Positions 38,904 through 47,178 of a stretch of DNA of 64,000 nt are shown one piece after another. Each line of letters begins with the position of its first letter. The first letter of the stretch is position 1. The stretch covers positions 65,697-129,696 of the forward strand of contig CAVUQF010000002.1 of NCBI GenBank assembly GCA_963743615.1. Direction: 5' to 3'. Position numbers and translations under genes: made by a program. This DNA comes from an uncultured Nanoarchaeota archaeon (lineage in GTDB: Archaea; Nanobdellota; Nanobdellia; Pacearchaeales; GW2011-AR1). The notes beneath the pieces were generated by a model. The model worked only from the letters and a program-made list of their open reading frames with translations, had not been told where the DNA came from and made no database searches.

Positions 38904-39104
38904 TTAATTCTGTACTCCTCTTTCCAATTCACTTAAAACTCTTGCATTAGCTTCAACATAATCAAGTCCTTTTCCAATATATTCAGCTCTTTTTTTTTCA
39001 TTGTATCTTGATATGTCTGCTTTTGTAACAACTGTTGCCAACCCTCCTATAAGAGCAGCACCTGTGCATAGGTAAAGAACAGCTAAAGCATTGTTACAAT
39101 CCAT
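38904..39104 (-). CDS. small hypothetical protein wedged between rps12 and rps7
   Basis: 66 aa with an N-terminal hydrophobic segment. It fills the S12-S7 spacer exactly. Confidence 0.3.
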   Translation of the reverse strand: MDCNNALAVLYLCTGAALIGGLATVVTKADISRYNEKKRAEYIGKGLDYVEANARVLSELERGVQN

Positions 39105-39106
39105 AA

Positions 39107-39529
39107 TTATCTTCTACCCTTCTCAATCTTGCCAAGCCATAATCTTTGCAAAGGTTGATCATTTACTTTAATAACTTGGAACCTTATTCCAGGAATATCT
39201 CCCTTCTGTCTTCCGCTTCTTCCGCCTATTCTTTCAATTATAACTTCATCATGTTCATCAATAAATCTTTGCGCCAAATTTCCCGGAATGAAAACTCCTA
39301 CACCAACTCCGTTCTTTGTAAGCTGAACTCTGCAGCACTTTCTCATCGCTGAGTTTGGCTGTCTAGCTTCTTTTTGGAATTTTGAAAGAACAATTCCTTT
39401 TGCCTGGCTTGTGCCTTCAAGAGGATCTGACTTCTGGTAAAGATGCAGGGCTCTGGCTCTGTAAAATTTATTATGCCATCTATCTTTCTTCCTATTCTTG
39501 ATTATTTTTCTTGCGCTGTTTAAACCCAT
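39107..39529 (-). CDS. rps12: ribosomal protein S12 (uS12)
   Basis: PNSAMRKCCRVQLTKNGVGVGVFIPG... Confidence 0.95.
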   Translation of the reverse strand: MGLNSARKIIKNRKKDRWHNKFYRARALHLYQKSDPLEGTSQAKGIVLSKFQKEARQPNSAMRKCCRVQLTKNGVGVGVFIPGNLAQRFIDEHDEVIIERIGGRSGRQKGDIPGIRFQVIKVNDQPLQRLWLGKIEKGRR

Positions 39530-39572
39530 ATTAGTTGTTGATAAAAATAGTTTAAAAATATTGTGTTGAACG

Positions 39573-39595
39573 TACTTTGTTACCTTAAAGGTTGG
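39573..39595. repeat. left terminal inverted repeat (23 bp), preceded by an 11-bp direct repeat at 39564-39574
   Basis: TACTTTGTTACCTTAAAGGTTGG is the exact reverse complement of 43186-43208. Confidence 0.75.
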
Positions 39596-39632
39596 TGGTT
39601 AAGTTTTTAAGTTTCTGAAACATCCTCTTTTT

Positions 39633-40208
39633 ATGAATATTAAAGATGTAAAAACTGCCTTTAAAGTTGCAGATGTAATCCTTGAAAAAGAACATCCGAT
39701 AAGACGTATAAGATTTGTTTTCCTTGATGAAATCTATGATGAACATAGAAAGAGATTAAATAACGATGTTCTAAAGGATAATTCTGGTAGAATTTATCTG
39801 ATTGTTGTGAATGGTCAAATAATGAAAATTGGTGGCTCACAAAGTAAGGGAGGGATAAAAAGCACACTATCCTTTTATCAGGGAGGATTACAAGGCGGTC
39901 CAAGTATCAGGACCTATGGAATTCATATTCTATTGAGCGAAGAACTTGAAAAAGGAAAGAAAGCAGAAATTTATATGATAACTTCTCAAAGAGCAAGGAT
40001 GAAAGTAAAGGGTCTATTTAGTGAAGATGAAACGGAAGTTTCGGCATTTAAGGATATGGAAGATAAATGTAAAAAAGATTATGTTGATAAAGAAGGCACT
40101 TATCCTCCTTGGAATTTTCAGGAGAAGGGAGAACCTTGGAGAGAAGATATAACACGAGGATTAAATATACACGGTAGCAAAAGGAAAGTCTTGAATAAAA
40201 ATAACTAA
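39633..40208 (+). CDS. hypothetical protein, a candidate restriction endonuclease partner of the adjacent MTase
   Basis: 191-aa ORF convergent with the MTase, overlapping it by 4 nt. No motif is assigned, so the call rests on context only. Confidence 0.3.
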   Translation: MNIKDVKTAFKVADVILEKEHPIRRIRFVFLDEIYDEHRKRLNNDVLKDNSGRIYLIVVNGQIMKIGGSQSKGGIKSTLSFYQGGLQGGPSIRTYGIHILLSEELEKGKKAEIYMITSQRARMKVKGLFSEDETEVSAFKDMEDKCKKDYVDKEGTYPPWNFQEKGEPWREDITRGLNIHGSKRKVLNKNN

Positions 40209-41182
40209 TTTCTTGGTGGGCAATAGATTAAAATTTCGTGAGAACCTTTGATATTGCTTTCAGTTCCATTATCAATTCTATTCTTTCCTATCCTTGTTTC
40301 TCCTTGACCCATAGTATATTGCCAAATTGGAAATAATTGCTGAAATTCTTTGTAATATTCTCTTATTGTTGGACAATCATTATAAGACAAGATAAAACCA
40401 CCTTTATGCTGTTTCAATAAATCCCTTAAAACTTCGTGGGGAAATCCTTTATGATGAACAGGAATATTTCTCATAGGATAAATTCCTTTGAACATTTTAG
40501 AATCTGGTCCGATATAGTAAGGTGGGTCCAAATACATAAAATCATTTGGATATTTTTTAAGAGTATCTTGGAAATCTGCCTGTTCAACTTTCAAGTTTCC
40601 TGGTTCAAAATCTCTAATTTTTTCTATTATCTTTTTATATCTCTCTGGTTTTAGATAAATATCAGAACTCCAACCCATAAAACCAGGACCATAAGACAAA
40701 TTAAAATTATAAACATAATAAATAGCAAGGGTTAATGGGTCTAAAGTAATCTCTTTTCTCCAGACCTGATTTAATATTTTTCTTATCCTTTCAAATTCTT
40801 CTTTGGTAGGTTTTAACTCCATTAACTTTTCATAGAGAAGTTTTGGATTTTCTATTTGATATTTCCAATAATTACATAGAATATCAAAAATCTCATAACC
40901 TCGGACTTCAATATCAAGATATTTGCTCATAGCAATTTCAACAGAGCCACCACCAAAAAAAGGGGATATAACTCTTGTTACATTATCTGGCAATAGTTCA
41001 AGAATATGCCCAACAGCTAAACTCTTGCCCCCTGCATATCTTATCGGAGAAACAGGGACTCTCTTGTATTTGTTCATACTCTCTGGGTTTTTACTTCTTA
41101 TGCTTTCCAGAAAATCTCTCCTCTTTTCAGTATCCATATTTATCTCATTCTCTTTTGTCTTTTTAACTTTTCTGACTTGCAT
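40205..41182 (-). CDS. Dam-class (alpha, D12) N6-adenine DNA methyltransferase
   Basis: PIRYAGGKS; motif I ISPFFGGGSVEIAM; motif IV FMYLDPPYY. The likely true start is Met at ~41077. Its 5' end overlaps the transposase gene by 20 nt. Confidence 0.85.
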   Translation of the reverse strand: MQVRKVKKTKENEINMDTEKRRDFLESIRSKNPESMNKYKRVPVSPIRYAGGKSLAVGHILELLPDNVTRVISPFFGGGSVEIAMSKYLDIEVRGYEIFDILCNYWKYQIENPKLLYEKLMELKPTKEEFERIRKILNQVWRKEITLDPLTLAIYYVYNFNLSYGPGFMGWSSDIYLKPERYKKIIEKIRDFEPGNLKVEQADFQDTLKKYPNDFMYLDPPYYIGPDSKMFKGIYPMRNIPVHHKGFPHEVLRDLLKQHKGGFILSYNDCPTIREYYKEFQQLFPIWQYTMGQGETRIGKNRIDNGTESNIKGSHEILIYCPPRN

Positions 41183-42113
41183 TATATATTAACTCCAACC
41201 ATTTATTTTCTGAATTTAATATTAAATCAGTAGCTAATTCATAAGGACAGCAATTCAAACTTTGATGTTTGGTTATGAAATTGTAATAAACTTCCCAACC
41301 TTTCATAATCGCATTTGCAGAATTTACAGAACCGTGAAATCCTCTGAAAGTTTTAGTTCGCTGTCTAATATTATTATGCAATCTTTCAACCATAATATTG
41401 AACCCTTCGCCACGAGAAGCATTAACTTGATTATGGATTACATTTACTTGATGTGTTTTATTTGAATATCCAAAAACTTTCTTTATTGCATTAGGATAAG
41501 CCATAAGTCCATCAGTAGTTATGACTTTGATTTGTTCTCCTGTCTTGATTTTTGTTGCTTTTAGGATTTGCTTAATGTTTCTCTGTTCTCTGTGCTTTAC
41601 AAATTCAGAAGCAACCATATAACGAGTTTCAGTATCTATGGAATCAATAAACCAATTTCTATCTACTCCTCTTTTGTTGTGATATTTTCTTCTGGAATAC
41701 TCCATTTCATCAACTTGCAGTTCGCTACCGACATTCAGCTTTAAGCTGTTTGTAAATTGAGAAATCATCTTGCCATATTTCACAATCCACTTATAGATTG
41801 ACTTATGACTGGAATTATGAGGGTAGAATGCCTTAAAGTGTTCCTGAACCTTTCTGGTGCTAACTCCTCTGTAGAATAAGTCAATAGCACAAGTTATCTT
41901 TTGAGGGGCATTTCTCATTCTCTTGAAGCCATCATCAAGAACAAATGTGTTTAAGCAATCTTTACACTTATATCTTTGAATTAGACCTCTATTTTGGGTT
42001 TTTCTTCTGCACCACTTAATTGTGCTGTTGCTCTTGCATTTTGGACATATCATTTTGTTTTCCATAGTATAATTCGGTATCCGAACTATATATATCTTTC
42101 GGTATCCGAACAT
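41163..42113 (-). CDS. IS6-family-like DDE transposase with an N-terminal zinc-finger extension
   Basis: The C-terminal region (ITTDGLMAYPNAIKKVFG...HNQVNASRGEGFNIMVERLHNNIRQRTKTFRGFHGSVNSANAIMKGWEVYYNFITKH) follows the IS26/IS6 pattern. The N-terminus carries CPKCKS...CKDC. Confidence 0.7.
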   Translation of the reverse strand: MFGYRKIYIVRIPNYTMENKMICPKCKSNSTIKWCRRKTQNRGLIQRYKCKDCLNTFVLDDGFKRMRNAPQKITCAIDLFYRGVSTRKVQEHFKAFYPHNSSHKSIYKWIVKYGKMISQFTNSLKLNVGSELQVDEMEYSRRKYHNKRGVDRNWFIDSIDTETRYMVASEFVKHREQRNIKQILKATKIKTGEQIKVITTDGLMAYPNAIKKVFGYSNKTHQVNVIHNQVNASRGEGFNIMVERLHNNIRQRTKTFRGFHGSVNSANAIMKGWEVYYNFITKHQSLNCCPYELATDLILNSENKWLELIYNASQKS

Positions 42114-42187
42114 ATATTATATACCTACTTAAAGGTATAGTCTTTTAAAATAATAAAGTTTAAAAACATACCTATTTTAAGGTATAT

Positions 42188-42790
42188 ATGCCTAATAGTG
42201 AGTATATATCATTCTGCCATCGTTGTTATCACACTTGGAAGAGAAGACGAGAAGAACTTCCAAAAGTCTGCCCAAAATGTAAAAGTCCTTACTGGAATAA
42301 ACCAAAGAGAATTGCTCAAAGATTAATTCTTCCAACTTCCGAAACTATAATTAAAATCCATGATGAGATAATAAGAAAAAGTGGAGGTGAATTGGGTATA
42401 AGAGAAGATGGAGGAATACATAACTCTATTCTTAAATTACTGAATCATCAACAAAAGAACAGGAAGAATCCTGAAAGTATAGGTGCTTTTGCTTTAAACG
42501 AATTTGCTAAAAGACACTATTTTATAGATGGTAATAAAAGAATAGCTTATGCAGTAGCTAAAATATTTATGCTCATAAATAGATGTCATCTAAAAACAAA
42601 ATATGGTGAAGCTACTGAATTTATTAGAGAGGTAGCTAAATATCAAAGCAAAATAGACCTTCCAGAAATTAGGAATTGGTTTAAAGATAACAGATGTGAA
42701 ATAATTACCGAGAAAGAATTAGAAAACTATTTAAGTAGAAACTACTTTGATTTAGTATTTGAAGAGGAAGGGGGGCAAAATGGAAGATGA
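42188..42790 (+). CDS. Doc/Fic-family toxin (death-on-curing) with an N-terminal Zn ribbon
   Basis: The Doc motif HYFIDGNKRIAYAVAKIFML has the form HxFx(D/N)GNKR. The N-terminal CHRC...CPKC forms the Zn ribbon. Confidence 0.75.
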   Translation: MPNSEYISFCHRCYHTWKRRREELPKVCPKCKSPYWNKPKRIAQRLILPTSETIIKIHDEIIRKSGGELGIREDGGIHNSILKLLNHQQKNRKNPESIGAFALNEFAKRHYFIDGNKRIAYAVAKIFMLINRCHLKTKYGEATEFIREVAKYQSKIDLPEIRNWFKDNRCEIITEKELENYLSRNYFDLVFEEEGGQNGR

Positions 42791-42965
42791 AAAATCTGAA
42801 CTAAAAAATAACGAGATAAAAATAACTAAAAAAATCGTTTATGAATTCTCTAAAAAAGATGACCTTACTGATAAAGATAAGAAATTCTTGAAGTTAGTAA
42901 TGATTGCAGGAGAACTCGTTATAAAGGAAGATGAATTGCTATTCAAAGAATTAGCAAAATATTAA
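42759..42965 (+). CDS. small charged protein overlapping the doc 3' end; a possible cognate antitoxin
   Basis: 68 aa and K/E-rich. It overlaps doc by 32 nt. An alternative start is MEDEKSEL at ~42780. Confidence 0.3.
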   Translation: MKRKGGKMEDEKSELKNNEIKITKKIVYEFSKKDDLTDKDKKFLKLVMIAGELVIKEDELLFKELAKY

Positions 42966-43185
42966 TTATTATTTTTCTTTTTCAATAACTATTTTATCTT
43001 TTTCTATATTAACTTTTAACTCTTTATTTAAAAGATTTGACTCTTCAACTTTCTTTGGGAGATTTATTTTGTATTTATAGTAAGTTGTATTACCTACTTT
43101 CTTATCAACTGACTTCATTATTTTCATAAAATAATTAGGTATCCGAACCTTTTAAATAATTCGGTTTCCGAAGAAAAAGAAGCTA

Positions 43186-43208
43186 CCAACCTTTAAGGTA
43201 ACAAAGTA
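43186..43208. repeat. right terminal inverted repeat (23 bp), followed by an 11-bp direct repeat at 43209-43219
   Basis: CCAACCTTTAAGGTAACAAAGTA is the reverse complement of 39573-39595. Confidence 0.75.
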
Positions 43209-43220
43209 TGTTGAACGTAA

Positions 43221-43637
43221 TTACAAAATTCTCAGCTCTTTGCCAAAAAAGTCCTTTAATATTTTTTTCATTTCTAGGAGCCTTCTCTTCTCTCTACCTA
43301 TAAAAGCTGCTTTGTTTTTTGTTCCCGCATGAATTATTATCTCGTTGTTTCTGATTTCCAGATTCTTGAACTCAAATGGTTCTACTATCTGTTTTACAAA
43401 TCTCTCTGCATCAGCTATTCCCTCTGGAGCTATTATTATCTTGATCTTCTTTCCTATAATATTGCTTAACTGCTTTGAATTTTTTCCATCCTCTCCTATT
43501 GCCTTTGAGACTAAATTCTTTGGAACGCAAAAGAATATTGTATCATTGTATTCAAAACAGAATCTTGTGCTTATTTTGGTAATATCCCTAAAGAGATTAA
43601 GATGTCTCATATCCTGCATATTTATTGTGCTTTCCAT
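43221..43637 (-). CDS. nusA: archaeal NusA-like transcription termination factor (KH domains)
   Basis: KH motif LVSKAIGEDGKNSKQLSNIIGKKIKII. The 138 aa length fits, and the gene lies immediately downstream of rpoA. Confidence 0.8.
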   Translation of the reverse strand: MESTINMQDMRHLNLFRDITKISTRFCFEYNDTIFFCVPKNLVSKAIGEDGKNSKQLSNIIGKKIKIIIAPEGIADAERFVKQIVEPFEFKNLEIRNNEIIIHAGTKNKAAFIGREKRRLLEMKKILKDFFGKELRIL

Positions 43638-43653: not shown

Positions 43654-46600
43654 TTATTTCTTTTCCTTGGACTCTTTCGTCAAAGGTCCAGAAACTTTTA
43701 CAAATAATCCAGGAAGTCCAGTACCAACAGGGATAGGCTGATTCAGAATTATATTTTCAACAACACTTGCAAGTTTGTCTTTGCTTCCTTTTATCGTTGC
43801 ATTTACAAACTGTTTAACTGGAGTCTCAAAAGTTGCCCTTGCTAGTATTGAAGATTTCTGAGAGATAATTCCCATTCTGGTTACCCCTGACACAACTCCC
43901 GTATTTGTCATAGCATCAGCGACCAGTTTCAAATGTCTCTTGTCTATATCTAGACCCTGATTGTTCAAGACTTCGTATATTTCATTCATTATAAGTTTTC
44001 TTGCAGATTCAATTCCGAAAACATCTGCTACTTCATAAGGATCATTTGAAATTAACTTTTCGACATCCACTTCCTTCAACTTTATTATTTCCTTCAAATT
44101 TGTTCCCAGAGTGAGTATAACAAAGTCCTTATCTCTCTTTACAATCAATATCTGGCTGACATTCTTTATTCCCGAGATTATTGTTCTCTTAAGTTTTTCC
44201 TTCAACTGATAAATTTCCTTGAAATTCAATTCTGCTGCGTCTATAACAATGGAATCTTCTTTTTCTTTTATCTTGTACCCAGATTCCTTAAGTTTTTCTG
44301 TAATCTTATCTAAAGAAGTATGAACATGCTTTAATCTTTCTTTGTTAATAATAATTTCAATCTTCTTATCGCTGAAATTTAATTTGATTTCATCCGAAAC
44401 TTCTTCTATCTTTACTTCTTTTATTTTCTCAGCAATAATTCTTGCATCTTTTTCATTGTTGAAGTTCTTGTTCAAGTAAATTTCCATCTTTGGAGATGTT
44501 GGCTTCTTTCTTGCATCAAATATTTCAATTAATCTTGGAAGTCCTTGTGTAACCTGCATTTCGGATACTCCTGCGAAGTGGAATGTTCTCAAAACCATTT
44601 GCGTCGAAGGTTCTCCAAAAGATTGTGCGGTAACTATTCCTATTGCTTCTCCTGGTTCTAACTTTCCATCTTTAAGATGAAGTTTTGAAACATCCAGTCC
44701 ATCTCCACCATACTTGAACTGAATAATGCTACCATTACTGTTTCTTACCGTTCCATCATATTCTTCTCTTAAATCCTGTAGTGCGCTTGCAAGTCTTCTG
44801 TATAAATATCCGGATTTAGGAGTTCTTAATGCAGTATCCATAAGAGAGGATCTTCCAGTCATTGCCTGGAAGAAGAATTCTTCTGGCTTAAGACCATCCA
44901 TAAATGAACTGTTAATGAATCCTCTTGCCTTTGGAGATAAATCTCCCTTTTTGAAGAAAGATAATGTTCTGTCATTAAATCCTATATCAATTCTCTTTCC
45001 TTCTAAATCTTGCTGTCCTACAGAGCAAGCCATTTGGGTAATATTAAGAATATTTCCTCCGCTTCCTGACTTGATCATATATGAAACCGGGTTATCTTCA
45101 GGGAACTCTTCTTTGACTACTTCACTGATCTTTGATCTGACCTCATTTAGTATCTGCAATATCTTAAGTTCTCTTGACTCCTCTCTTGTCTTTCCAGGTA
45201 TTATCTCAAGACTTTTATTGTTGTAAGATTCAATTATTTCTTCTGTTTTCTTTTCAGCATTCTTGATTATCTTATCTTTTTCTTCAAGAACTTTCTTTGA
45301 TACATCAAGGTCTCCTACCGAAATTGTGATTCCTCTATTTGTCAAATATTTTGTTCCTAGAGCATAAGCCTTTTTTAGTGTCTCAAAGATTACATCTCTT
45401 CCAAGTTCTCTATCAATAACTTTTACCAAATCTCCTTCCTCATCGCTGAAAATTGTTTTGTTAAGTATTCCACTAACAACTTTTCCATCCTTAATTTTTA
45501 CAGAATCATTTTCAAAACTTATCTCCTTTGGAAGAACATGTGAGAATATCTCCATCCCTGAAACTTTCTTTCCTTGTGAGCCATTGAAGATTCCACACTT
45601 GTAAAGAAGATCATCCGCAAAATCCTTTGAGAACTGTCCAAGTCCGAGTAGATATCCTCCGGTTATTGCATCCCCTGTGCATCCAATTAAATTGGTATTG
45701 TTCTTTGGGGAAATCAGATTTTTCTTTATATCCAATAGAATTCTTGCTTCTGCTCTTGCCTCTTCAGTCTGAGGAGAGTGAATATTCATTTCATCCCCAT
45801 CAAAATCCGCATTATAAGGAGGTACAGCGGCAGGGTGAACTCTGAATGTTCTTCCCGGAAGAACTCTTACGAAGTGGGCCATCAGGCTTCCCTTGTGAAG
45901 GCTTGGGTGTCTGTTGAATAAAACAACATCTCCGTCCTGAAGGTGTCTTTCGACTTTATATCCTGTAATTATTTCATTTATTATTTCATCCTTTAGCTCC
46001 GGAGTAATCTTTTTTCTCTTCCCGTCTGGTCTTATAACATAATTTGCACCGGGATAATCCTCTCCTTTTAAGATAAGTTTTTTCAAATTATCTATGTTCA
46101 GATCATTAACAGTCTCGCAAACAGTTATCACCTTTGCAATTTCATAAGGAATACCTATTTCATTTATTTCAATGCAAGGATCAGGAGAGATGACGGTTCT
46201 TGCGGAATAATTAACTCTCTTTCCTGCAAGGTTCTTTCTTATTCTTCCCTCTTTTCCTTTGATTCTTTCCGTGATTGTCTTTAATGGTTGTCCGCTTCTA
46301 TGCCTTGCGGGAGGAATTCTTGAAACAGTATTATCAAAGAATGTTGTTATATGGAACTGCAATAAATCCCAAAGATCTTCTATAATAACTTCAGGAGCTC
46401 CGGCATTAAGATTCTCCCATAATCTTTGGTTTGCTCTTATTATATCTGATAGTTTGTGAGTCAAGTCATCTTCACTTCTCTCTCCACTTTCAAGAATAAT
46501 ACTTGGACGCACAGTTACAGGAGGAACAAGAAGGTATGTTAGTATTGCCCACTCAGGTCTTGAGCTTGTAGGATCAACCCCTATCTTTTTTAGCTCTTCA

Positions 46601-47178
46601 TTTGAAATATTTTCAAGAAGTTCTCTTACTTCATTTGGAAATAATCTCTTCTTGCCAATGTAGAAACTAGTTGGCTTATCAACTTTTATCTTCTCATGGT
46701 CAGCTCCGCAGTAAGGGCATTTCTTTACGTCCTTTGCTTTCTTGGCTCTTTCACTTTGAGAATATTTCTTTAGATTTTTATCATCAAGAAGCAACTTTCC
46801 GCATTTATGGCAGAAGCATCTTAGCCCCATTTCAATCAAAGGGACATACTTCAAGTGTACAACCGGTCTTGCAAGCTCAATTCTTCCAGGGTGTCCAAGG
46901 CATTCTTTTAATCTTCCCCCACATGTTCTGCATCTTACACCCGGATCAATTGCTCCAAGTCTTAAGTCCATTAATCCTCCATCAACAGGGTAACCATCGA
47001 CATCATAGAGCTCAGGTGTTACAATCTTCGCAGCCGAGATTTTTTTAATCTCTTCCGGACTAAATAAAGTGAATTTTATCTCTCCAATTTTCTTTCTTAT
47101 TATTTGTGGATACATTTTATTCGTATTTGTTCTTAAGACCAAATTTAGTATGGATATGTAATCCTTGAAGTTCTTCAA
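43654..47178 (-). CDS. rpoA: DNA-directed RNA polymerase largest subunit; the A' and A'' regions are in a single ORF
   Basis: The N-terminal clamp Zn motif RCRTCGGRLKECLGHPGRIELARPVVH and the catalytic NADFDGDEMN are A' features. The C-terminus ...ILNQPIPVGTGLPGLFV is A''-like. The ORF is continuous over 1174 aa. Confidence 0.9.
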   Translation of the reverse strand: MKNFKDYISILNLVLRTNTNKMYPQIIRKKIGEIKFTLFSPEEIKKISAAKIVTPELYDVDGYPVDGGLMDLRLGAIDPGVRCRTCGGRLKECLGHPGRIELARPVVHLKYVPLIEMGLRCFCHKCGKLLLDDKNLKKYSQSERAKKAKDVKKCPYCGADHEKIKVDKPTSFYIGKKRLFPNEVRELLENISNEELKKIGVDPTSSRPEWAILTYLLVPPVTVRPSIILESGERSEDDLTHKLSDIIRANQRLWENLNAGAPEVIIEDLWDLLQFHITTFFDNTVSRIPPARHRSGQPLKTITERIKGKEGRIRKNLAGKRVNYSARTVISPDPCIEINEIGIPYEIAKVITVCETVNDLNIDNLKKLILKGEDYPGANYVIRPDGKRKKITPELKDEIINEIITGYKVERHLQDGDVVLFNRHPSLHKGSLMAHFVRVLPGRTFRVHPAAVPPYNADFDGDEMNIHSPQTEEARAEARILLDIKKNLISPKNNTNLIGCTGDAITGGYLLGLGQFSKDFADDLLYKCGIFNGSQGKKVSGMEIFSHVLPKEISFENDSVKIKDGKVVSGILNKTIFSDEEGDLVKVIDRELGRDVIFETLKKAYALGTKYLTNRGITISVGDLDVSKKVLEEKDKIIKNAEKKTEEIIESYNNKSLEIIPGKTREESRELKILQILNEVRSKISEVVKEEFPEDNPVSYMIKSGSGGNILNITQMACSVGQQDLEGKRIDIGFNDRTLSFFKKGDLSPKARGFINSSFMDGLKPEEFFFQAMTGRSSLMDTALRTPKSGYLYRRLASALQDLREEYDGTVRNSNGSIIQFKYGGDGLDVSKLHLKDGKLEPGEAIGIVTAQSFGEPSTQMVLRTFHFAGVSEMQVTQGLPRLIEIFDARKKPTSPKMEIYLNKNFNNEKDARIIAEKIKEVKIEEVSDEIKLNFSDKKIEIIINKERLKHVHTSLDKITEKLKESGYKIKEKEDSIVIDAAELNFKEIYQLKEKLKRTIISGIKNVSQILIVKRDKDFVILTLGTNLKEIIKLKEVDVEKLISNDPYEVADVFGIESARKLIMNEIYEVLNNQGLDIDKRHLKLVADAMTNTGVVSGVTRMGIISQKSSILARATFETPVKQFVNATIKGSKDKLASVVENIILNQPIPVGTGLPGLFVKVSGPLTKESKEKK

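Follow-up and report, generated by a model that had tools for sequence, protein, structure and literature searches.

The window examined here, a 64,000-nucleotide (nt) stretch of contig CAVUQF010000002.1 from an uncultured Nanoarchaeota archaeon, contains a gene for a DNA methyltransferase (MTase) and, converging on it, an open reading frame (ORF) of 191 amino acids (aa), referred to below as ORF191. This arrangement raises the question of whether the two genes form a compact restriction-modification (R-M) system carried by a mobile element, as an earlier note on the sequence had suggested, or whether the MTase is an orphan. Both ORFs are present as described in that note, converging with an overlap of their stop codons of 4 nt (Table 1), and the evidence presented below makes it very probable that ORF191 and the D12-class MTase constitute a Type II R-M system of the HpyAORF481P type, with ORF191 as the putative restriction endonuclease (REase or R) and its neighbor as the putative modification enzyme (M).

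Judged by its homologues, ORF191 is clearly a real, conserved gene: 236 proteins of about 190 aa were retrieved from a 90%-identity database at an expect value (E) <=0.01, 367 clusters were matched in a library of 50%-identity representatives, and an alignment of 43 sequences contains 20 invariant columns. The MTase sits just downstream of a transposase gene, and its original call overlapped the transposase ORF. Its true start is probably M16 (ATG at 41137), because positions 41155-41182 are part of the transposase module common to a variant of the element and because homologues align from about residue 12. Comparison of this variant (L099; L-numbers denote the loci compared) and other alleles places the limits of the R-M cassette at about 39580-41154, corresponding to about 1.6 kb.

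ORF191 is a predicted GIY-YIG nuclease

ORF191 had no match in family scans against Pfam, NCBIfam and PADLOC, and the plasmid collection held no match either. The only family library model to catch it was PHROG 1111 ('endonuclease', E 1.3e-14), while the single PDB match obtained by single-sequence phmmer, a designed protein, was rejected as spurious. Since the direct family scans were empty and the phmmer match was spurious, profile and structure searches were needed. A profile derived from the ORF191 homologues produced only two informative matches in the PDB, Hpy188I (E 0.002) and T4 endonuclease II (EndoII; E 0.024), both of which are GIY-YIG nucleases. The AlphaFold2 model of ORF191 (pLDDT 92.9, pTM 0.88) contains two strands (residues 53-59 and 62-69) and, after them, a helix (74-83), and a Foldseek search of the PDB with this model retrieved Hpy188I (E 5e-7) and EndoII (E 3e-6), both with a probability of 1.0. 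The first seven PDB matches were all chains of these two enzymes, with UvrC GIY-YIG domains further down. According to the model, ORF191 has a GIY-YIG fold in which a beta-hairpin bears the GIY and YIG half-motifs. It is a single compact domain, which can be aligned with Hpy188I and EndoII over its whole length, and lacks an extra DNA-binding domain of the homing endonuclease type.

Closer examination of the active site in a hidden Markov model (HMM) alignment with Hpy188I, for which the roles of the residues are documented (PMC3045582), revealed that Y55 (Hpy188I Y63, the general base), K65-I66-G67 (K65 corresponding to Hpy188I K73 and standing in place of the YIG tyrosine), Y82 (Hpy188I Y88, the proton relay) and E143 (Hpy188I E149, the metal ligand) are all invariant. 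The orthodox arginine position (Hpy188I R84) is occupied by T78 in ORF191 and is not conserved, while R93, nearly invariant (at least 90%), is found at an alternative arginine position (Hpy188I T104). The cysteine positions of Hpy188I are occupied by G84/G85 and P90. N161 (at least 90% conserved) aligns to the PPWN motif of EndoII as the C-terminal Asn/Gln of the catalytic set. We propose Y55, K65, Y82, R93, E143 and N161 as the catalytic residues, which are intact in ORF191. The fold together with this set supports the possibility, raised in the earlier note, that ORF191 is a nuclease.

The Hpy188I family has been split into two branches, one of which is the R.HpyAORF481P branch (Kaminska et al. 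2008; PMC2630997). Members of this branch have a lysine in the YIG motif, an arginine at the alternative position 104/105 rather than 84 and no Cys90/Cys101 pair, and their pairing with alpha-class PF02086 MTases was already noted in the same study; HP0482 orthologues and a protein of cyanophage S-PM2 are among its listed members (PMC2630997). All of these traits are found in ORF191 and its partner MTase. ORF191 shares 42% identity (177 aa aligned, E 5e-45) with the R protein of Helicobacter pylori HUP-B14, an HP0482 orthologue encoded in the gene order typA, M (309 aa), R (204 aa) and 5-methylcytosine MTase that corresponds to the HP0480-HP0483 region, and it also matched S-PM2 p241 (tblastn, E 4e-13). 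Because of the catalytic pattern and the 42% identity to the HP0482 orthologue, we assign ORF191 to the R.HpyAORF481P branch. The previous description of the protein as lacking a recognizable family holds for Pfam, NCBIfam and PADLOC, while the suggestion of a possibly new REase family does not stand in view of the H. pylori and S-PM2 homologues.

The methyltransferase is of the alpha class

The MTase gave a full-profile match to PF02086 (MethyltransfD12; E 3.5e-33, 115.8 bits versus a cut-off of 22) and matched the REBASE-derived Type II MTase model PDLC03281 of PADLOC end to end (E 2.4e-113). Motif I (FFGGGS, residues 74-79) comes before motif IV (DPPY, residues 218-221), the order found in the alpha class. 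Identity amounts to 54% with the H. pylori HP0481 orthologue (E 2e-122) and to 50% with the Dam protein of S-PM2. The closest solved relative is M.CbeI (7M6B; E 5.5e-15, 58 bits), an alpha-class N4-cytosine MTase with the same DPPY motif. Of the earlier claim of an unambiguous N6-adenine MTase, the two motifs and their alpha-class order are confirmed, while the N6-adenine label is too strong given that M.CbeI shares DPPY. The score against the TIGR00571 equivalog for Dam (GATC) was 52.7 bits, below the cut-off of 114.85, and the E. coli and T4 Dam structures were not among the PDB sequence matches. By these scores, the enzyme is 'Dam-class' in the superfamily sense only.

A different domain organization was observed in copies from the candidate phyla radiation (CPR)/Patescibacteria, in which the MTase has about 511 aa and the D12 domain is fused in frame to two others, a DNA-binding domain of the LexA type (PF01726, E 3e-15) and a self-cleaving S24 peptidase (PF00717, E 7e-30). 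At least 12 distinct genomes share this fusion, at 54-73% identity (Table 1). Its domain content suggests an SOS-linked control of the R-M system, and no description of such a fusion was found in a literature search. The window MTase has no LexA or S24 domain, only a linker at residues ~16-45.

Linkage of the nuclease and methyltransferase genes

In 78 of the 80 genome loci, the ORF191 homologue is adjoined by a homologous MTase gene. The gene order, counted over these genome loci plus the metagenome and phage loci scored alongside them, differs between lineages. R and M are convergent in 32 loci of DPANN archaea and CPR bacteria, while a tandem of M then R was observed mostly in Campylobacterota but also in Bacteroidota and further bacteria, some CPR (Saccharibacteria, Patescibacteria) among them, with the genes adjacent in 53 loci and about 2 kb apart in two. 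In T4-like cyanophages, R precedes M and the two genes are adjacent and overlapping. Helicobacter alone contributed dozens of loci with an ORF191 homologue in a scan of species-representative genomes. The partner MTases are 50-82% identical to the window MTase, those of cyanophages 43-50%, and the copies in Paceibacterota show 69% identity for R and 70% for M. Because this linkage survives gene rearrangement across domains and into viruses, we consider ORF191 and the MTase a cognate R-M pair, and the orphan MTase that the earlier note had kept as an alternative is unlikely.

Only a Methanosarcinales metagenome-assembled genome (L026) and a Helicobacter sp. (L085) had no homologous MTase within 5 kb of the nuclease gene; these nucleases could be solitary or paired with another MTase class. 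One marine member of the family has been described as paired with a different MTase class (PMC2630997).

The MTases of some convergent loci (L031, L057, L072, L050, L027, L023 and L034) are 73-82% identical to that of the window, while the identity of the corresponding REases is only 41-47%. Either a faster divergence of the nuclease or an exchange of nucleases within the family could account for this gap.

The pair is a passenger of a transposon

The R-M pair lies within an element of 3,636 bp (39573-43208) that is inserted between rps12 and a nusA-type KH gene. The element has perfect 24-nt terminal inverted repeats (TIRs), is flanked by a 9-bp target site duplication (TSD) and is absent from an empty-site allele, all of which are generic characteristics of DNA transposons. 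The 24-nt sequence occurs at these two places only in the window, with 0 occurrences expected by chance. A first reading of the ends as an imperfect inverted repeat of 48 nt was discarded after comparison of empty and occupied sites, which resolved it into the 24-nt TIR and the direct, nearly palindromic TSD. Similarly, an interpretation of the 24-mer as a mere promoter or operator was ruled out by its sharp outer boundary, the TSD, the empty-site allele and identical copies that bound unrelated cargo. The 24-mer may still contain a promoter-proximal element. A TATA-like TTTTTAAG box is present about 10 nt inside the left TIR, with the ATG of ORF191 36 nt beyond the repeat, and this box arrangement was also seen at the other TIR copies.

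Alleles of the site were compared among contigs of strains encoding identical S12 and NusA proteins. In two of these (L098 and L101) the site is empty, nusA and rps12 being separated by 46 nt, and L098 contains a single related TSD copy, TGCTCAACA, in opposite orientation. The full element is carried by L100, L106, L107 and L110. A deletion derivative of about 470 bp (L097 and L105) retains both TIRs, the TSD and a gene for a 52-aa protein; a single event removed about 3.2 kb from it and joined the initial codons of ORF191 to the end of a 68-aa ORF. L099 represents a diverged allele that shows 91% identity up to the end of the transposase gene (about window position 41155). Beyond this point, a PF01555 MTase substitutes for the D12 MTase and ORF191 as well as for most of the TIR. 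The transposase gene of L099 is split. These variants and the empty site, together with the TIRs and the TSD, substantiate the earlier proposal that the pair is cargo of a mobile element. At the nusA-rps12 site, unrelated DNA is inserted in at least two further cases, namely a 115-aa ORF in L103 and a longer string of genes in the ERZ1426829 contig. The population is represented in the ENA assemblies ERZ25039466, ERZ25039473, ERZ25039479 and ERZ25039486 and in the Logan entries ERR11523654, ERR11523660 and ERR11748453.

The same 24-mer, with the same outer boundary, was detected in three unrelated metagenome contigs (L094-L096), where it bounds other cargo. In L096 (526-1335), the TIR is followed by an REase of the MvaI/BcnI family (PF15515, E 1e-50) that converges on an MTase with an SPPY motif, a second, unrelated R-M pair at the equivalent end of what appears to be the same transposon family. 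The cargo states seen thus comprise the GIY-YIG/D12 pair of the window, the MvaI/BcnI REase with the SPPY MTase of L096 and the lone PF01555 MTase of L099. Derivation of L099 from the L096 cargo by deletion of R was ruled out, the MTases of the two being unrelated. In L003, L014 and L016, the R-M pair is not flanked by similar TIRs; the transposon context is specific to the lineage of the window, and elsewhere the pair occurs without this transposon.

Besides the R-M cassette, the element encodes a transposase with an N-terminal zinc ribbon, a Doc/Fic-family toxin and the two small proteins of 68 and 52 aa, the passenger genes (R-M, Doc and small ORFs) amounting to about 2.6 kb (Table 1). The likely true start of the transposase is M17 at 42065, which would result in a protein of 300 aa, the length of its cluster representative. 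It scored below the cut-off of the IS6 model NCBIfam NF033587 (E 1.8e-22, 80.1 bits versus 125), with weaker matches to IS256, IS1 and IS481. The 13-nt palindrome TTCGGTATCCGAA occurs as a pair, 25 nt from start to start, upstream of both the transposase and the 52-aa ORF. Five matches with up to two mismatches were found on four sites of the window versus 0.77 expected, all of them within these two stretches. The pairs resemble shared operators, on which the 52-aa protein possibly acts.

The Doc/Fic protein has an N-terminal extension of about 45 aa with a CxxC...CxxC zinc ribbon, to which the DZR and Zn_ribbon models match weakly. No recognizable antitoxin of the Phd type was found upstream of doc, and neither of its small neighbors matched an antitoxin family. 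The 68-aa ORF is possibly the partner of Doc, and the 52-aa protein is a possible small DNA-binding regulator or antitoxin. A resemblance of the latter to AbrB/MazE is an impression by eye that neither HMM searches nor BLASTP against the MazE-like protein of L003 supported; its equivalent in L095 gave a weak MazE match (E 0.015).

These observations can be combined into a tentative wider picture, to which we give somewhat less than even chances. It envisages a family of DPANN transposons in which one end serves as a dedicated slot for interchangeable R-M cassettes, with a promoter just within the TIR from which R is read inward and with TTCGGTATCCGAA operators shared by the transposase and a small regulator. 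The pair would recently have crossed the boundary between archaea and bacteria, and the LexA/S24 fusion gained by M in the Paceibacterota copies could tie modification to the SOS response.

Table 1. Coordinates of the features discussed in the text (positions in the window unless a locus number is given; matches with E values and bit scores versus cut-offs)
Feature	Position	Strand	Description
66-aa ORF	38904-39104	-	between rps12 and rps7
rps12	39107-39529	-	left neighbor of the element
left TSD copy, TGTTGAACG	39564-39572		9 bp, direct repeat of 43209-43217
left TIR, TACTTTGTTACCTTAAAGGTTGGT	39573-39596	+	perfect 24/24 inverted match to 43185-43208
ORF191	39633-40208	+	191 aa; stop TAA at 40206-40208
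D12-class MTase	40205-41182	-	325 aa; stop TAG, from 'cta' at 40205-40207
DDE transposase, N-terminal zinc ribbon, IS6/IS240-like	41163-42113	-	PF13610 DDE_Tnp_IS240, E 1.9e-8, score 35 vs gathering score 27
palindrome TTCGGTATCCGAA x2	42073-42110		upstream of transposase start; operator-like
Doc/Fic-family toxin, N-terminal zinc ribbon	42188-42790	+	TIGR01550 DOC_P1, E 1.9e-12, 47.5 bits vs 38.65; PF02661 Fic, E 6.9e-9
68-aa ORF	42759-42965	+	overlaps 3' end of doc; no family match
52-aa ORF	42969-43127	-	read inward from right TIR; conserved in all element variants
TTCGGTATCCGAA-like palindrome x2	43135-43172		upstream of 52-aa ORF; repeat D1
right TIR	43185-43208	-	24 nt
right TSD copy, TGTTGAACG	43209-43217		3 nt beyond stop codon of nusA-type KH gene
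nusA-type KH gene	43221-43637	-	right neighbor of the element
RNA polymerase largest subunit	43654-47178; L097:1583-5044	- (window)	single ORF
LexA-S24-MTase fusion	L009:1975-3510	-	also L007/L008/L015, L017, L019-L024, L028, L029, L034, L036

Proposed mechanism

We infer that the alpha-class MTase would use S-adenosylmethionine (FGGGS and DPPY motifs) to modify a short, presumably palindromic site in the host DNA and that ORF191 would cut the same site when it is unmodified, employing one-metal GIY-YIG chemistry and acting probably as a homodimer like Hpy188I. By analogy with Hpy188I, Y55 would activate the attacking water, K65 and R93 would hold the scissile phosphate, Y82 would relay a proton and E143 would anchor the metal ion. 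The TATA-like box near the left TIR is the probable promoter of R, and M may share a transcript with the transposase; having the two genes transcribed toward each other may keep their expression in balance. The role of the pair may lie in defense, in addiction-type stabilization of the element through post-segregational killing alongside Doc, or in both.

Recognition site and alternative explanations

Several observations weigh against an active R-M system. In REBASE, the suffix 'P' stands for putative, and we found no biochemical or methylome study for any member of the HpyAORF481P branch. The methylome paper on H. pylori 26695 and J99 never names hp0481, jhp0433 or jhp0434, and a literature search for HP0481, HP0482, the J99 locus names and HpyAORF481P yielded no specificity study. 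The H. pylori orthologues of the pair may be silent or redundant: most of the motifs detected in the methylome paper were credited to other loci, with CGRAT left without an assignment. The match of ORF191 to Hpy188I is weak at the sequence level (E 0.002, about 18% identity), and the root-mean-square deviation (rmsd) of the Foldseek superposition on Hpy188I is high (12 A), which we tentatively attribute to the glutamate that in Hpy188I is supplied in trans by the partner subunit (PMC3045582). The sequence motifs do not decide whether N6-methyladenine or N4-methylcytosine is formed, DPPY being common to the N4-cytosine enzyme M.CbeI. Finally, the 64-kb window shows no clear avoidance of any palindrome, with no |z| above ~3.6.

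The lowest palindrome ratios in the window were those of GTAC (0.72), GATC (0.77) and GANNTC (0.80). In the pooled flanks of loci carrying the pair, GATC was the most depleted motif or nearly so, with observed/expected ratios of 0.44-0.55; this is a lead only, as GGCC, CTAG and others were also depleted and carrier flanks alone were compared. In H. pylori F57, methylation of GATC has been put at just 5% (PMC3983042). The TCNNGA enzyme (Hpy188III) was considered as a member of the branch and rejected, TCNNGA being assigned to jhp1012/1013 with a gamma-class MTase in the 26695/J99 methylome paper.

The lack of clear site avoidance and the silence of the literature on HP0481/jhp0433 would also be expected if the locus had the architecture of an R-M system but was decayed or silent, with an inactive or unexpressed nuclease and an MTase that is perhaps solitary and serves an epigenetic or anti-restriction role. 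The decay of the element in sister strains, i.e. the split transposase and lost R in L099 and the large deletion in L097, points in the same direction. However, all proposed catalytic residues of ORF191 and both MTase motifs are intact, ORF191 has its full length and shows 100% identity between independent samples, and the transposase of this copy is intact as well. The length of the protein and the 20 invariant positions are moreover conserved throughout the family, which argues for purifying selection, and we regard decay or silence as improbable. Far more improbable still, to the point that it can be given hardly any weight, is an orphan MTase to which ORF191 is merely adjacent as an unrelated GIY-YIG nuclease of the homing or repair type or as an accessory of the transposon. 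Homing endonucleases and repair proteins often contain GIY-YIG domains (PMC3045582), and ORF191 is located at the very end of a mobile element, but an MTase of the same family adjoins the nuclease gene throughout DPANN, CPR, Campylobacterota and Bacteroidota in all but two of the genome loci, as well as in cyanophages, despite changes in gene order. The pair is also found without this transposon in other genomes, and ORF191 has no DNA-binding domain of the homing type, its compact domain aligning throughout with Hpy188I and EndoII.

An explanation that is unlikely but deserves more consideration holds that the pair is primarily an addiction module which, alongside Doc, stabilizes the transposon by post-segregational killing instead of defending against viruses. 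The element carries two modules of the toxin type, R-M and Doc, and the observed loss removed R, M and Doc in one deletion, as would be expected if losing M alone was lethal. On the other hand, the deletion derivative shows that the element persists without these modules. Addiction would further require the same molecular mechanism as the Type II R-M system proposed here and differ from it in the selective benefit alone.

Genomic surroundings

The element is inserted in a cluster that comprises rpoB, rpoA, nusA and the genes for S12, S7, EF-2 and EF-1alpha. One protein that clusters with the S12 carries the annotation Candidatus Nanoarchaeia. In most archaea, the largest subunit of RNA polymerase is split into A' and A''. 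Here, it is encoded by a single ORF of 1153-1174 aa containing Rpb1 domains 1-5, both in the window and in L097 (Table 1). The conserved 66-aa ORF between rps12 and rps7 has a hydrophobic N-terminus and is present in all sister contigs; it had no family match.

Significance and comparison with known systems

The R.HpyAORF481P branch was predicted bioinformatically in 2008, and our literature search turned up no biochemical characterization of it. The family is well conserved and occurs widely among the ultra-small DPANN archaea and CPR bacteria, providing many intact candidates for work on the recognition site. The sampled population itself offers natural near-isogenic controls (full element, deletion, swapped MTase and empty site), from which a long-read methylome could assign the motif. 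Since Pfam, NCBIfam and PADLOC have no model for this REase, it is missed by censuses of defense systems. The locus also documents an R-M system as the passenger of a transposon defined by TIRs and TSD within the core rpo-nusA-rps12 cluster of an archaeon with a tiny genome.

Among characterized enzymes, R.Hpy188I (TCNGA; PDB 3OQG/3OR3) resembles ORF191 in the GIY-YIG fold, the tyrosine base, the lysine in place of the YIG tyrosine, the second tyrosine (Y88, Y82 in ORF191), the glutamate ligand and a length of about 170-190 aa. The two differ in that their identity is only about 18% and that the arginine of Hpy188I is R84, where ORF191 has T78 with R93 instead. Unlike ORF191, Hpy188I has intercalating cysteines and a gamma-class MTase partner. 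T4 endonuclease II (DenA; PDB 2WSH) gave the best superposition (TM-score 0.72 on the target, rmsd ~4 A) and has the C-terminal PPWN in common. EndoII is loose in its choice of sites and is not known to have a partner MTase; the DNA of T4 itself is protected by hydroxymethylcytosine. The MTase shares the D12 fold and DPPY with M.CbeI, although the relationship is distant and M.CbeI methylates cytosine at N4.

The transposon is similar to IS6/IS240 elements in its PF13610 DDE transposase, its TIRs and a short target duplication. The TSD of IS6 elements is typically 8 bp. That of the window element is 9 bp, and its 24-nt TIRs, the zinc ribbon, the ~2.6 kb of passengers and a score below the IS6 cut-off further set it apart.

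The closest parallels to the pair as a whole are found in cyanophages and in H. pylori. Pairs of an endonuclease and a 'Dam' protein (S-PM2 p241/p001, Syn30 CPRG_00032/31 and Sf-CH11 gp45/46) are 31-47% identical to the window proteins for R and 43-50% for M. Unlike the window pair, they are arranged in tandem with R before M on the genomes of lytic T4-like phages, where they may function in the degradation of host DNA rather than in defense. R.HpyAORF481P/M.HpyAORF481P (HP0482/HP0481) of H. pylori agree with the window pair in sequence (R 42%, M 54% identity), in the lysine in place of the YIG tyrosine, in the alternative arginine (R93 in ORF191), in the lack of the cysteine pair and in the alpha-class PF02086 partner. 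In contrast to the tandem of M then R in H. pylori, the pair described here is convergent with a 4-nt overlap, resides in a DPANN host and is carried within a TIR-bounded transposon.

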